A DNA stretch of 63,892 nucleotides, filler included, from an uncultured Acidimicrobiia bacterium (GTDB lineage Bacteria; Actinomycetota; Acidimicrobiia; Spongiisociales; JAOTWH01): NCBI GenBank assembly GCA_964347285.1. It is 4 parts of 4 records of this genome, joined end to end, with 100 filler letters (N's around TTAATTAATTAA, not from the genome) between each part and the next. Parts side by side here need not be neighbours in the genome. Positions count along the whole stretch, not along the records: positions 38,305 to 56,737 come from CAYFYE010000050.1; 3 more parts are not named here. One strand, written 5' to 3'. Made by a program: the position numbers. How positions within the stretch are numbered: position 1 is the first letter of the stretch; every line of letters begins with the position of its first letter. Of this stretch, positions 46,401-49,400 are shown piece after piece.

Positions 46401-49400
46401 TGCGGCCGGGGCGGCCGCACCCTAGATCTTCGGGACCTTGAACCCGGACTTGGCGATCACGTGGTCGCGCCCTTCTTCGGCCGTCCGGCGCACCGAGGGC
46501 CAATCGACGTGCTGCAACTCGCCGTGGCGCTTCATGACCCGGCCGGCGATGAGCACGGTGTCGACGTTGCCGGTGTCCATCCCGGTCACCACGGCCGTGG
46601 CCGGGTCGTTGAGCGGGGTGACGTTCATCCGGTCGGTGCGCAGCAGGATGATGTCGGCGTGCTTTCCCGGGGTGAGGGTGCCCACCTTGGCGTCGAGGCC
46701 GTTGGCCTTGGCCCCGTCCCGGGTGGCCCACGCCAGCACGTCTTTGGCGGTCATCGGCGCCTTGCCCTGGGCGGCCGCCTGGGTGCGCTGCAGCGCCAGC
46801 ACCGAGCGCATCTGGTTGAACATGTCGTTGGGAACGTTGGTCTCCACGTCCACGCTGAGGCTGGGCGGCAGGCCCCGGTCCAGGAACTTCTGGATGGGGG
46901 GCATGCCGTGGCCCATCATCATCTCCACCGGCGAGGCCAGCGACACCGTGCCGCCGGTGTCGACGATCATCTGGATCTCGGTGTCGTTGAGGGTGGTGCA
47001 GTGGATGTAGGTGGTGTCCGGGCCCAGCAGCCCGGCCTCGCCGAAGGCCTGCACCTTGCCGTCGAGTCCGTACGTCCCCACCCCGACGTGGGTGGAGATG
47101 CGGGCATCGGCCTCCCGGGCCAGCTTCCAGTGGTCGCGGGTGACCTCGAAGTCGGTGAACTCGGGGCCGGGGGCGGCCAGCGCCAGGGTGAGCATCTGGT
47201 CCTTGGTGGAGAAGTGCTCGGTGGCGGCCCGCACGAACCAGCTGGGCTGGCGCTCCTCCCACTTGCCCCACCACGGGAACCCGTAGGCGAAGACGGCCCG
47301 CATGCCCGAGTCGTTCAGGGCCTGGATGACGGCATCGGTGTGCGCCGGCGAACCCTGGATGTGGGACCAGTCGAGCAGCGTGGTCACCCCGGCGTCGATG
47401 GCGCCCAGGGCCGACACCAGGTTGCCCACGTAGGCGTCCTCGGGCCGGAAGGCCGGTGCCAGCTTGTGGAGGACGAAGGAGATGTAGCTCGTTCGTCCCT
47501 CCAGGGGAACGTCGGTGCCGATGTTTCTGAGCAGGCCCTCCCAGATGTGGCGGTGGGTGTCGACGAACCCGGGCATCACGATCATGCCGGCGGCGTCGAT
47601 GACGTCGGCATCGGCCGCCTCCAGTTCCGGGCCCACCTCCACGATCTTCTCCCCGTCGATGAGCACGTCGCCGCCGACGACGTCGCCGATCTGCGGGTCG
47701 AGGCTCAACACGATCCCCCCCTTGATCAGGGTGCGGCCCGTGGGGGCCACCGAGAAGTCGGTCCCCTCGGGGTAGAAGGCGGGGATCTCGGCGCCCTCGG
47801 CCACCCGGCTCCCGAGGACCAGGCGGCGGGCCCGGCGGAAGTTGCGCTTCACCAGCTCCTTGAGGTCCCCCACCTGGAAGAGGATGATCCCGGCCAGCAC
47901 CAGCAGCCCGATGATCATCGAGCCGTCGTCGGGCGACAGGCCCAGGAACGGCAGCACGGTGATGATCAGGGCCAACAGAACCGCCGCCACCGTGCTCCCC
48001 ACGAACGTGGCCCGGCCCCCGGCCAGGGACGCCCCTCCCAGGACGGCGGCGGTGATGCTGTTGAGGGCGAAGGGAGTCCCGATCTGGGCATTGCCGATCG
48101 GAGAGCGGGCCATGACGAAGTACGAGGCCACCGCAGCCAGGCCCGCCGACAGCAGCAGCGCCCGCACCCGCACCCAGTTGGTACGGATCCCGCCCCGCTT
48201 CGCCGAGCGCTCGTCGAAGCCCACCGCCCGCAGCTCCAGGCCCGACCCGGAGGCGTGCAGCCACACGTCCAGCAGGCCGGCGCCGAGGACGATGAGGATG
48301 AAGGCGATGGGGATCGGTCCCCAGCGGGCGGTGAGGAACGACACCAGGTCGTCGCTGATGATCCCCTGGGCCGTCGGCCGCATGGTCAGCGAGATGCCGT
48401 CGAGGATGCTCAGCGTGGCCAGCGTGGCGATGAGCGACGGAATCTTGACGCCCCGCACCAGCCCGGCGTTGACCAGGCCCAGCCCGAGGCCGCAGCCGAG
48501 GATGGCCAGCAGACCGAGCAGGATCTGCCCGACGGAGGCGTCGGCGCCGATGAGGAACGAGCCGACTACGACGCCGAAGCTGATCATCGCTCCCACGGAG
48601 AGGTCGAGGTAGCCGACGAGGATGGCGTGGGTCTGCGCGATGGCGGCCAGCGCCAGCGGCATGGCCAGGATGAGAACGTTGGAGATGTTGGCCCGGTTGA
48701 TGAACCCGGGAAACCGGGCGTTGGTGTACCAGAGGAGGGCGAGGATCAGCAGCACCTGGAGCGCCACCGGCATCCACAGGCGCACCTTGACGATCTTGCG
48801 CCACTTGTTCTTGTCGCGGGCGTTGCGCAGGATCTTGCGGAGGAGCTGCCTCGCCTGATCGACGCGGGTAGAAGTGACCTCGGCGGTCACGACGCCTCTT
48901 GGCTCGTCGGCGCCTTGGGCATGGCCACCCCCAGGGGCGACCGGGCCGCCTTCGACATCCCCGGCCCGCGCACGATGGCCTCGACGATGCGCACCTCGTC
49001 CAGCTCGTCTCCGGGGATCTCCTCGATGATCGTGCCCCGCGACATCACCAGCACCCGGTCGCACATCCCGGACAGCTCGATGGGATCGCTCGACTTGATC
49101 AGCAGGGCGGCCCCGGCGTCGACGCGAGCCCGCAGCGCCTTGTAGATGTCGAAGCGGGAGCCGATATCGACCCCCTGCGTCGGCTCGTAGGCCAGGATCA
49201 CCGACGGCTCCTTGAGGAACGACCGGGAGACCGAGACCTTCTGCTGGTTGCCGCCGGAGAGGAACTCGACCGGCTGGTCGAGCGACGGCGTGCGGATCTC
49301 CAGCTGCTCGACGAGGTTGCCGACCGCCGATCGCTCCGCCCGCCGCCGCAGCAGCCCCAGCCGGGAGAAGCTGCCGAGAGACTGGATGGTGGCGTTCACC

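Follow-up and report, generated by a model that had tools for sequence, protein, structure and literature searches.

A conserved fusion of an ABC importer permease with a PRK08204-type amidohydrolase, a candidate transport-catabolism unit, in one order of the Acidimicrobiia

The usual view of binding-protein-dependent ABC importers is that their substrate enters the cytoplasm unchanged. A gene in a 63,892-nucleotide stretch of DNA from an uncultured Acidimicrobiia bacterium (assembly GCA_964347285.1; hereafter the window, which consists of several contigs joined by runs of N) raises the question of what an importer does with a hydrolase built into one of its own permeases. The gene lies on the contig at positions 38305-56737 (Table 1), and its GTG start codon overlaps the stop codon of the ATPase gene within the tetranucleotide GTGA, with AAGAGG 4 nt upstream of the GTG. 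Pfam searches place BPD_transp_2 (PF02653) at aa 68-333 (1.8e-19; 70.4 bits, above the gathering score of 26.8) and Amidohydro_1 at aa 437-785 (5.4e-33; 115.1 bits, cut-off 25) on the same frame. The initial annotation had read the locus as one ORF composed of a permease and an amidohydrolase, tightly conserved as a fusion and encoded with an ATPase, a binding protein, a second permease and a free amidohydrolase; both domains were recovered above cut-off, the four partners were confirmed by domain search, and the best 120 homologues listed are all fused (120/120 with PF02653 and PF01979, 809-832 aa, 81-100% identical).

Table 1. Features of the fusion locus, in positions of the window.
Feature	Position	Strand	Remarks
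Whole fused gene	46422..48890	-	822 aa + stop; permease, linker and amidohydrolase in a single frame
Membrane domain, aa 1-346	47853..48890	-	K/R-rich N-tail, 10-helix BPD_transp_2; coupling loop ~aa 216-236
Linker, aa 347-385 (~40 residues)	47736..47852	-	Basic VKRNFRRARR, then low-confidence stretch with conserved P.FYP.G.DF
Amidohydrolase domain, aa 386-822	46425..47735	-	PRK08204-type; H446/H448, H601, H630 and D681 kept; no HxxE Glu
ATPase, RbsA/AraG-like, 521 aa	48887..50452	-	Two ABC_tran domains in a single chain
Substrate-binding lipoprotein	50478..51872	-	Peripla_BP_4; lipobox AAAC; Thr/Ala/Pro-rich repeat tether
Second permease, unfused, 348 aa	51952..52998	-	30% identical to fused membrane domain; same basic tail at end
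Free amidohydrolase paralogue, 436 aa	52995..54305	-	40% identical to fused domain; without signal peptide
M24 hydrolase with Creatinase_N	54420..55844	-	Longest frame; 85-90% identical in relatives
Bicupin (2 x Cupin_2)	55673..56599	-	Upstream in part of relatives

The cassette order (free amidohydrolase, second permease, binding protein, ATPase, fusion) was found in 11/11 further genomes examined, while the M24 and bicupin genes are adjacent at just 6 of these 11 loci. With genes for a tandem-NBD ATPase and a Peripla_BP_4 binding protein beside it, the fused gene belongs with the CUT2 importers (ribose/arabinose/AI-2), with which the system shares PF02653, 10 predicted helices, an RbsA/AraG-like ATPase and two permease genes. 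Unlike known CUT2 importers, however, it fails the NCBIfam equivalogs (AraH 91 vs 378; RbsC 71.5 vs 398), one permease bears a 437-aa enzyme at its C-terminus, and the binding protein has no NCBIfam match and only weak PDB matches by sequence, to CUT2 sugar binders (best E 7.7e-7). All 120 relatives listed for the binding protein are close orthologues under generic names. The M24 protein comes closest to prolidase and DddP, at scores well short of both cut-offs, and since its orthologues align from aa 41-58 its true start is probably internal; the bicupin gave weak matches only. Ten stand-alone relatives carry generic names, and the Atlas gave just generic amidohydrolase clusters, so that the substrate is not named by the binding protein, M24, bicupin, stand-alone-relative or Atlas comparisons. 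Downstream of the cassette, an alpha/beta hydrolase, a 179-aa ORF and YjbQ, DAO and PPOX-like genes had matches of at least 80 bits at 0/11 further loci and are not kept beside it. A glycerate-kinase-like gene at 59826-61472 was set aside as context, lying on another contig past an N run, and Rfam returned zero families on the contig of the fused gene.

We consider it slightly better than an even proposition that the locus encodes a heterodimeric CUT2-type importer with an enzyme-bearing permease, in which a C-N bond of the imported compound is cleaved beside the transporter and the paralogue serves as dimer partner. The importer would combine the lipoprotein binding protein and one tandem-NBD ATPase with two different permeases, of which one carries a mononuclear-metal-type amidohydrolase on its cytoplasmic C-terminus through a linker of 40 residues and fixed length. 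The compound would be let out into the cytoplasm next to the tethered enzyme, paired with the free paralogue as second dimer subunit, and would probably be hydrolysed right there, as the initial annotation had proposed, at an amide, amidine or ring C-N bond. Cleavage at the transporter would keep free substrate low and commit it to catabolism, with later steps proceeding via the M24 hydrolase and the bicupin in those relatives that encode them upstream.

Enzyme-transporter fusions are known among peptidase-containing ABC exporters, SulP-carbonic anhydrase proteins and LplT-Aas. Carbonic anhydrase with bicarbonate transporters is a transport metabolon (PMC3794380). The present locus resembles such systems in that an enzyme held at a transporter would tie the conversion of a molecule to its transport, but those involve exporters, secondary carriers or complexes without a covalent bond, whereas here the permease of a binding-protein-dependent ABC importer is joined to a catabolic hydrolase. 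Among the matches listed in the literature searched, there was no description of a permease-amidohydrolase fusion.

It could be argued that the tether serves co-expression only, as a 'Rosetta stone' fusion, the domain being an ordinary soluble catabolic enzyme with neither kinetic nor structural coupling to transport, and the paralogue an independent second enzyme. We regard this as fairly unlikely. The linker is of low confidence (pLDDT <50) in the full-length AF2 model (pTM 0.62), which leaves the domain arrangement undefined, and a stand-alone copy, 66% identical and beside an M24 gene in one further genome (G306), suggests that the enzyme can work unfused. Against co-expression alone, the linker shows zero indels across 22 orthologue rows and its P.FYP.G.DF motif is conserved. 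The fusion has also been retained. A stop-free single-frame match across the junction occurs in 43/401 genomes of the class Acidimicrobiia (42 without the unpublished genome G254), all in one order, to which the fusion is confined, and spread over six families; 39 of the 43 frames extend over nearly the full length, and identity is 74-83% for the 38 that remain once the window's own is set aside. A natural split form did not turn up: the short permease records (64-87% identical) reach the amidohydrolase N-terminus and then shift frame or end.

The free paralogue bears on both readings. In this genome its strand-8 Asp is replaced by Gly, and at least one canonical catalytic residue is lost in 9/29 genomes, this one included, with the ORF still intact; it scores below the cut-off of NF006056 (PRK08204; 352.7 vs 391), and a quick tree gives branches of 0.23-0.62 for it vs 0.04-0.14 for the fused domain, the paralogue thus evolving faster. 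Modelled as a complex with the fused domain, it reached an ipSAE of 0.95 in 3/3 runs, the best of three controls giving 0.00; this mark is attained by 116/157 solved complexes and by 2/215 mismatched pairs, although the score does not discriminate between a heterodimer and a homodimer made by two fused chains and may merely mirror likeness to solved COG0402 homodimers. The runs share at least 95% of contacts, with a partner pLDDT of 91. Conservation of the paralogue is higher at the predicted interface than elsewhere (0.715 vs 0.540), a comparison that depends on active-site proximity and shared ancestry. On these models, the paralogue most likely supplies the other half of the amidohydrolase dimer, and in this lineage and some others it most likely does so as a catalytically impaired partner; it would offer a test case for the drift of an enzyme into the role of structural partner. 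Because 20/29 free paralogues have every one of the five canonical residues, in most lineages the protein may simply be a second enzyme, and its different pocket (H509 replaced by D, E or G in 28/29) agrees with the co-expression reading.

A stronger version of coupling can also be drawn, namely a single machine in which the catalytic subunit fused to one permease recruits the paralogue, the resulting heterodimeric amidohydrolase is docked beneath the transporter, the paralogue is becoming a pseudoenzyme and hydrolysis is mechanistically coupled to translocation in a manner resembling group translocation. We think this unlikely; if true, free substrate would never build up in the cytoplasm, and enzyme occupancy might gate the ATPase.

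The importer reading requires that the fused domain be an enzyme, and its residues suggest that it is catalytically intact. The motif DTHRHIWE at aa 444-451 supplies the HxH of strand 1, and together with the strand-5 His, strand-6 His and strand-8 Asp of the (beta/alpha)8-barrel it aligns to 7ww2, so that residues and fold alike correspond to a mononuclear HxH/H/H/D amidohydrolase. The AF2 model of the domain (pLDDT >90) shares the fold of COG0402/TRZ-ATZ enzymes (AtzA 4v1x, TrzN 3ls9, 7ww2, MTA/SAH deaminase 4f0r), with TM-scores by target of 0.81-0.89 to AtzA, 7ww2, 3hpa and MTA deaminases, and the best PDB match by sequence is 7ww2, an 8-oxoguanine/isocytosine deaminase (9.6e-31). The domain differs from these enzymes in its low identity (20-27%), its DWSH and D-V-E motifs, its attachment to a membrane protein and its lack of the HxxE glutamate after strand 5, the proton shuttle of COG0402 deaminases: HVGV stands where 7ww2 has HLAE. 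The only NCBIfam model passed is NF006056 (PRK08204, 'hypothetical protein'; 508.5 vs cut-off 391), a family without assigned function whose other members are stand-alone, some of them Tat-exported, and whose name is absent from the literature searched. Models for MTA/SAH deaminase (78.9 vs 779), 8-oxoguanine deaminase (146 vs 532), N-ethylammeline chlorohydrolase (176.4 vs 609) and SsnA (124.3 vs 444) fell far below cut-off, and with HVGV at the HxxE position the domain falls outside the COG0402 deaminase class (cytosine, guanine, 8-oxoguanine, MTA/SAH). The 'deaminase-type' label of the initial annotation therefore did not hold; the fused enzyme probably lies outside the classical deaminases, and the missing glutamate would leave several chemistries possible. 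Family-specific E453, H509 and E683 are present.

Whether the domain might be a ligand sensor regulating the transporter, with no catabolic role, turns on the same residues. ABC importers with C-terminal regulatory domains are known (MetN, ModC, MalK), in which the ATPase subunit bears an additional ligand-binding domain that mediates trans-inhibition, and the absent glutamate could mean weak catalysis. In the present system it is the permease that bears the extra domain, and the 521-aa ATPase shows two ABC_tran domains only, which places the locus outside that class; moreover, H446, H448, H601, H630 and D681 are invariant in 23/23 fused rows from 20 genomes. Glutamate occupies the HxxE position in 0/44 aligned family rows, and since the whole PRK08204 family, Tat-exported members included, lacks it, its absence is a family trait rather than decay. 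A purely regulatory role therefore appears quite improbable.

For the tethered enzyme to meet the imported compound, the domain must lie inside the cell, and the topology points that way, as had been claimed at the outset. Segments with 19-aa hydropathy windows of at least 1.5 occur solely within aa 32-347, and the values for aa 390-822 peak at 1.44. AF2 predicts 10 helices (36-59, 66-91, 98-113, 120-147, 152-169, 193-212, 238-262, 268-285, 295-316 and 320-358), the N-tail holds 12 K/R in 38 aa, and loop 218-249 has 7 K/R and bears the conserved coupling stretch RAVGFDERSAKRGG. Four helices follow this loop; the stretch VKRNFRRARR continues the last of them, the tail beyond it reads KELVKRNFRRARR, and seven of the 13 residues after it are K/R. 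An even number of helices, four of them beyond the coupling loop, together with the K/R-rich tail predicts a cytoplasmic position for the domain. As judged from AF2 and charges, the 10 predicted helices and the positive-inside pattern would fit a CUT2 permease with its two ends and its coupling loop facing the cytoplasm; PMC3654945 gives 10 TMS as the prediction for most CUT2 permeases.

An outward-facing domain, converting an external precursor into the compound captured by the binding protein, would find some encouragement in the Tat (twin-arginine) signals of five stand-alone relatives (P0130, P0132, P0163, P0194 and P0239), from which it follows that the family is active outside the cytoplasm too, and in the moderate confidence of the membrane-domain model (pLDDT about 55-85, with helix 268-285 flanked by low-confidence stretches). 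Foldseek with this model gave weak likeness to the type II importer TMDs PsaC, HmuU and BtuC (best E 3.9e-3) and found no solved BPD_transp_2 structure. Helix parity and the basic residues after the last helix nonetheless speak against it, the unfused second permease shares the same basic end, and the free paralogue, the predicted partner of the domain, lacks a signal peptide; we judge an external location highly improbable.

If the importer reading is correct, a permease with its own catabolic enzyme, long kept over six environmental Acidimicrobiia families, would constitute a natural transport-catabolism unit. The fusion would physically link the uncharacterised PRK08204 amidohydrolases to a transporter, whose ligand could be identified through a screen of the binding protein; as long as the substrate has no name, the practical value is limited.

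That two neighbouring genes were merged through sequencing or assembly error has next to no probability and is refuted as far as sequence goes, because the frame is intact and stop-free across the junction in the 43 independent assemblies and because the permease-only short records, present on long contigs, run on into the first amidohydrolase residues before a shifted frame or plain end, which marks them as fused genes that have been broken or cut short. The fusion is thus real and conserved by the sequence record. At least two of the short permease records are partial records, and clustering at 50% yielded a single fused cluster.

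The permease and amidohydrolase domains are both from known families, and in the window they are carried by a single open frame whose GTG start and the stop codon of the preceding ATPase gene overlap as GTGA, with AAGAGG four bases upstream. Pfam scores BPD_transp_2 at 70.4 bits (cut-off 26.8; aa 68-333) and Amidohydro_1 at 115.1 bits (cut-off 25; aa 437-785), and hydrophobic 19-residue windows are confined to aa 32-347. The numbers quoted in the initial annotation (domain scores, homologues, PDB match) were all recovered within rounding. Both domains and a length of 809-832 aa are found in all 120 best proteins of a 90%-clustered collection, and the fused ORF is, as that annotation stated, already in public records under generic names.

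The fusion it proposed is real: a single-frame, stop-free match spans the junction in 43 of 401 genomes sampled from the class Acidimicrobiia, all 43 (one of them, G254, unpublished) from the same order and from families f1, f2, f3, f4, f5 and f8. The match is near full length in 39 and shortened or cut by contig ends in the other four; identity to the window's fusion is 74-83% in the 38 near-full-length genomes other than its own. Two further genomes hold a high-identity C-terminal fragment alone, and with the fusion as query the other orders of the class yielded, in the 401 genomes, only separate amidohydrolases or separate permeases. Among the best 150 matches to 50%-identity representatives, a single full-length cluster is fused (P0122, 80% identical), the remaining full-length matches being stand-alone amidohydrolases (~430-530 aa, at most 57% identity) and all others fragments.

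Short "permease-only" records are 64-87% identical to the fused membrane part and run into the first amidohydrolase residues before a shifted frame or a plain end; several lie on contigs of hundreds of kilobases, up to 1.4 Mb, and at least two are partial records. On their sequences, these are broken or truncated copies of the fusion and not natural split forms; P0451, P0452, P0457, P0461, P0467 and others, which carry frameshifts, could be read-error artefacts of long-read assembly or genuine pseudogenes. True stand-alone permeases (P0552, P0556) are 42-43% identical to the fused membrane part. P0516, a 396-aa record with 48% identity over the membrane part, breaks off after the first 13 residues of what resembles an amidohydrolase domain (RRILIRGGTVLTM) and may be a sign of a more distant fused lineage. 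G227, a genome from a different family of the class, has a related cassette that lacks an amidohydrolase and is followed by PPOX-like and FMO-like genes; its tandem ATPase and permease (37% identical to the fused membrane domain) share one open frame, which may be either a fusion or an in-frame overlap.

Coordinates of the fused gene and of features compared with it (identity: 11 further genomes against the window's proteins)
Feature	Position	Strand	Size	Identity
Contig holding the fused gene	window 38305-56737		18,433 bp	
Fused gene, single open frame	window 46422-48890	-	822 aa	
Fused amidohydrolase				80-85%
Fused membrane part				66-79%
ATPase	window 48887-50452			79-87%
Binding protein	window 50478-51872	-		61-80%
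Second permease	window 51952-52998			64-82%
Free paralogue	window 52995-54305			51-68%
M24 hydrolase	window 54420-55844	-		85-90%
G306 stand-alone amidohydrolase	L021:9491-10813	+		
G306 M24 neighbour, divergently placed	L021:8023-9324	-		
G227 ATPase-permease frame	L025:4963-7569	-	868 aa	
Pyruvate dehydrogenase E1-like genes	L020:2575-4613			
ORF with zincin-like motif	window 38515-40590	-	691 aa	
Glycerate-kinase-like ORF	window 59826-61472			
N runs	window 19626-19725, 38205-38304, 56738-56837			

All 11 further genomes examined share one gene order in the cassette: free amidohydrolase, second permease, binding protein, ATPase, fusion. An M24 hydrolase and/or bicupin gene lies upstream of the cassette at six of these loci, and the window's downstream genes adjoin it at none of the 11. 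At one locus, L020, pyruvate dehydrogenase E1 alpha-/beta-like genes, absent from the window's operon, stand between the M24 and free amidohydrolase genes; gaps of the same size, about 2 kb, occur in L014, L017, L018 and L024 (size alone compared). The binding protein opens (aa 1-70) with a lipobox, VAAAC, and repeated TETTAAP units forming a Thr/Ala/Pro-rich tether, which a weak Pfam label, New_glue, misnames.

In a quick tree, the fused rows form one clade (20/20, SH-aLRT 99) and the free paralogues their own (11/11, support 95), with end branches of 0.04-0.14 and 0.23-0.62, respectively. In addition to the fusion, G306 carries a stand-alone amidohydrolase with 66% identity to the fused domain, and the M24 gene next to it has 78% identity to that of the window; since this amidohydrolase copy is sister to the one fused clade, the tree fits a single fusion event. 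At least one of five canonical residues is lost from the free paralogue in nine of 29 genomes (the window's, with Asp replaced by Gly at strand 8, and G110, G273, G202, G028, G230, G381, G360 and G102), and all five are intact in the other 20.

In fold, the fused domain matches COG0402/TRZ-ATZ enzymes (AtzA, TrzN, the isocytosine/8-oxoguanine deaminase 7ww2, MTA deaminases, 3hpa; TM by target 0.81-0.89, identity 20-27%). H446/H448 (HxH), H601, H630 and D681 align to metal/catalytic residues of 7ww2, and none of them varies among the 23 fused rows, drawn from 20 genomes. At the HxxE position, HVGV replaces the HLAE of 7ww2, and the glutamate is missing from all 44 aligned family rows. The only NCBIfam model above cut-off is NF006056 (PRK08204, "hypothetical protein"; 508.5 against 391), all named deaminase or chlorohydrolase models scoring far below theirs; "MTA/SAH deaminase" and "cytosine/adenosine deaminase-related" are automatic source names. 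The earlier "deaminase-type" label is thus not sustained, and given the invariant residues, the missing glutamate and the failing models, we read the domain as a putatively active metal hydrolase that acts on a C-N bond rather than an established deaminase. We infer candidates for the missing acid/base among family-specific conserved residues: E453 (after HxH), H509 (DWSH; replaced in 28 of 29 free paralogues) and E683 (D-V-E).

An AlphaFold2 model of the fusion (61-row alignment; mean pLDDT 79, pTM 0.62) has pLDDT above 90 in the amidohydrolase domain, about 55-85 in the membrane domain and below 50 at aa 339-363. It contains ten long helices (36-59, 66-91, 98-113, 120-147, 152-169, 193-212, 238-262, 268-285, 295-316, 320-358), recovered again in a separate model of aa 1-437; ten TMS are predicted for most CUT2 permeases (PMC3654945). 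The N-tail has 12 K/R among 38 residues, and the loop after helix 6 has seven and carries a conserved RAVGFDERSAKRGG stretch where NBD-coupling helices sit, followed by four more helices. Where the chain exits the membrane it reads KELVKRNFRRARR, and the second, unfused permease has a similar basic C-terminal tail. In structure, the membrane model comes closest to the type II importer subunits PsaC, HmuU and BtuC, all weak matches (E >= 3.9e-3, TM by target 0.45-0.60), and no solved BPD_transp_2 structure was found. On all these grounds, a cytoplasmic amidohydrolase domain is a consistent prediction, not a demonstration.

Modeled together, fused aa 384-822 and the free paralogue gave an ipSAE of 0.95 in three of three runs (best of three controls, 0.00), a mark that 116 of 157 solved complexes reached, as did two of 215 mismatched pairs; the runs share at least 95% of contacts, with a partner pLDDT of 91. 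The solved relatives form homodimers, so the score may reflect mere likeness to them, and it cannot separate heterodimer from homodimer. Conservation at the predicted interface exceeds the rest in the free paralogue (0.715 vs 0.540), a weak and non-independent hint of pairing, and does not differ in the fused domain (0.820 vs 0.834).

We lean toward a model in which a binding lipoprotein would deliver a polar compound, a two-permease, tandem-ATPase importer would move it inward, and the tethered amidohydrolase, probably with the free paralogue, would hydrolyze it near the release point. A fusion without any coupling is appreciably less probable, though the strongest of the alternatives; the linker (aa 347-385) shows zero insertions or deletions over 22 orthologue rows, with a P.FYP.G.DF pattern preserved throughout it. 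That the domain, with its invariant metal-site residues, is a regulatory sensor seems improbable. Slightly more doubtful still is an outward-facing pre-processing enzyme. In its favour, five stand-alone PRK08204-type relatives (P0130, P0132, P0163, P0194, P0239) have 50-85-residue N-terminal extensions with SRRxFL-like twin-arginine motifs, so part of this family is exported and some members act outside the cytoplasm too. With the junction open in 43 genomes, an artefactual frame is scarcely credible.

The unusual part is the architecture, a catabolic enzyme on the permease of a binding-protein-dependent ABC importer; the literature matches listed contained no description of a permease-amidohydrolase fusion of an ABC importer. 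Peptidase-containing ABC exporters, SulP-carbonic anhydrase fusions and LplT-Aas fusions are known parallels. Transport metabolons with carbonic anhydrase are another (PMC3794380).

The N runs make the window at least four joined contigs, so genes past 56837, the glycerate-kinase-like ORF among them, have no linkage to the operon. The 691-aa ORF matches nothing in Pfam or NCBIfam; its N-terminus is signal-like, and it carries GDPGD...GDWDGDG repeats and a zincin-like HEIGHTLHWPH motif, in a region of lower GC (0.59).
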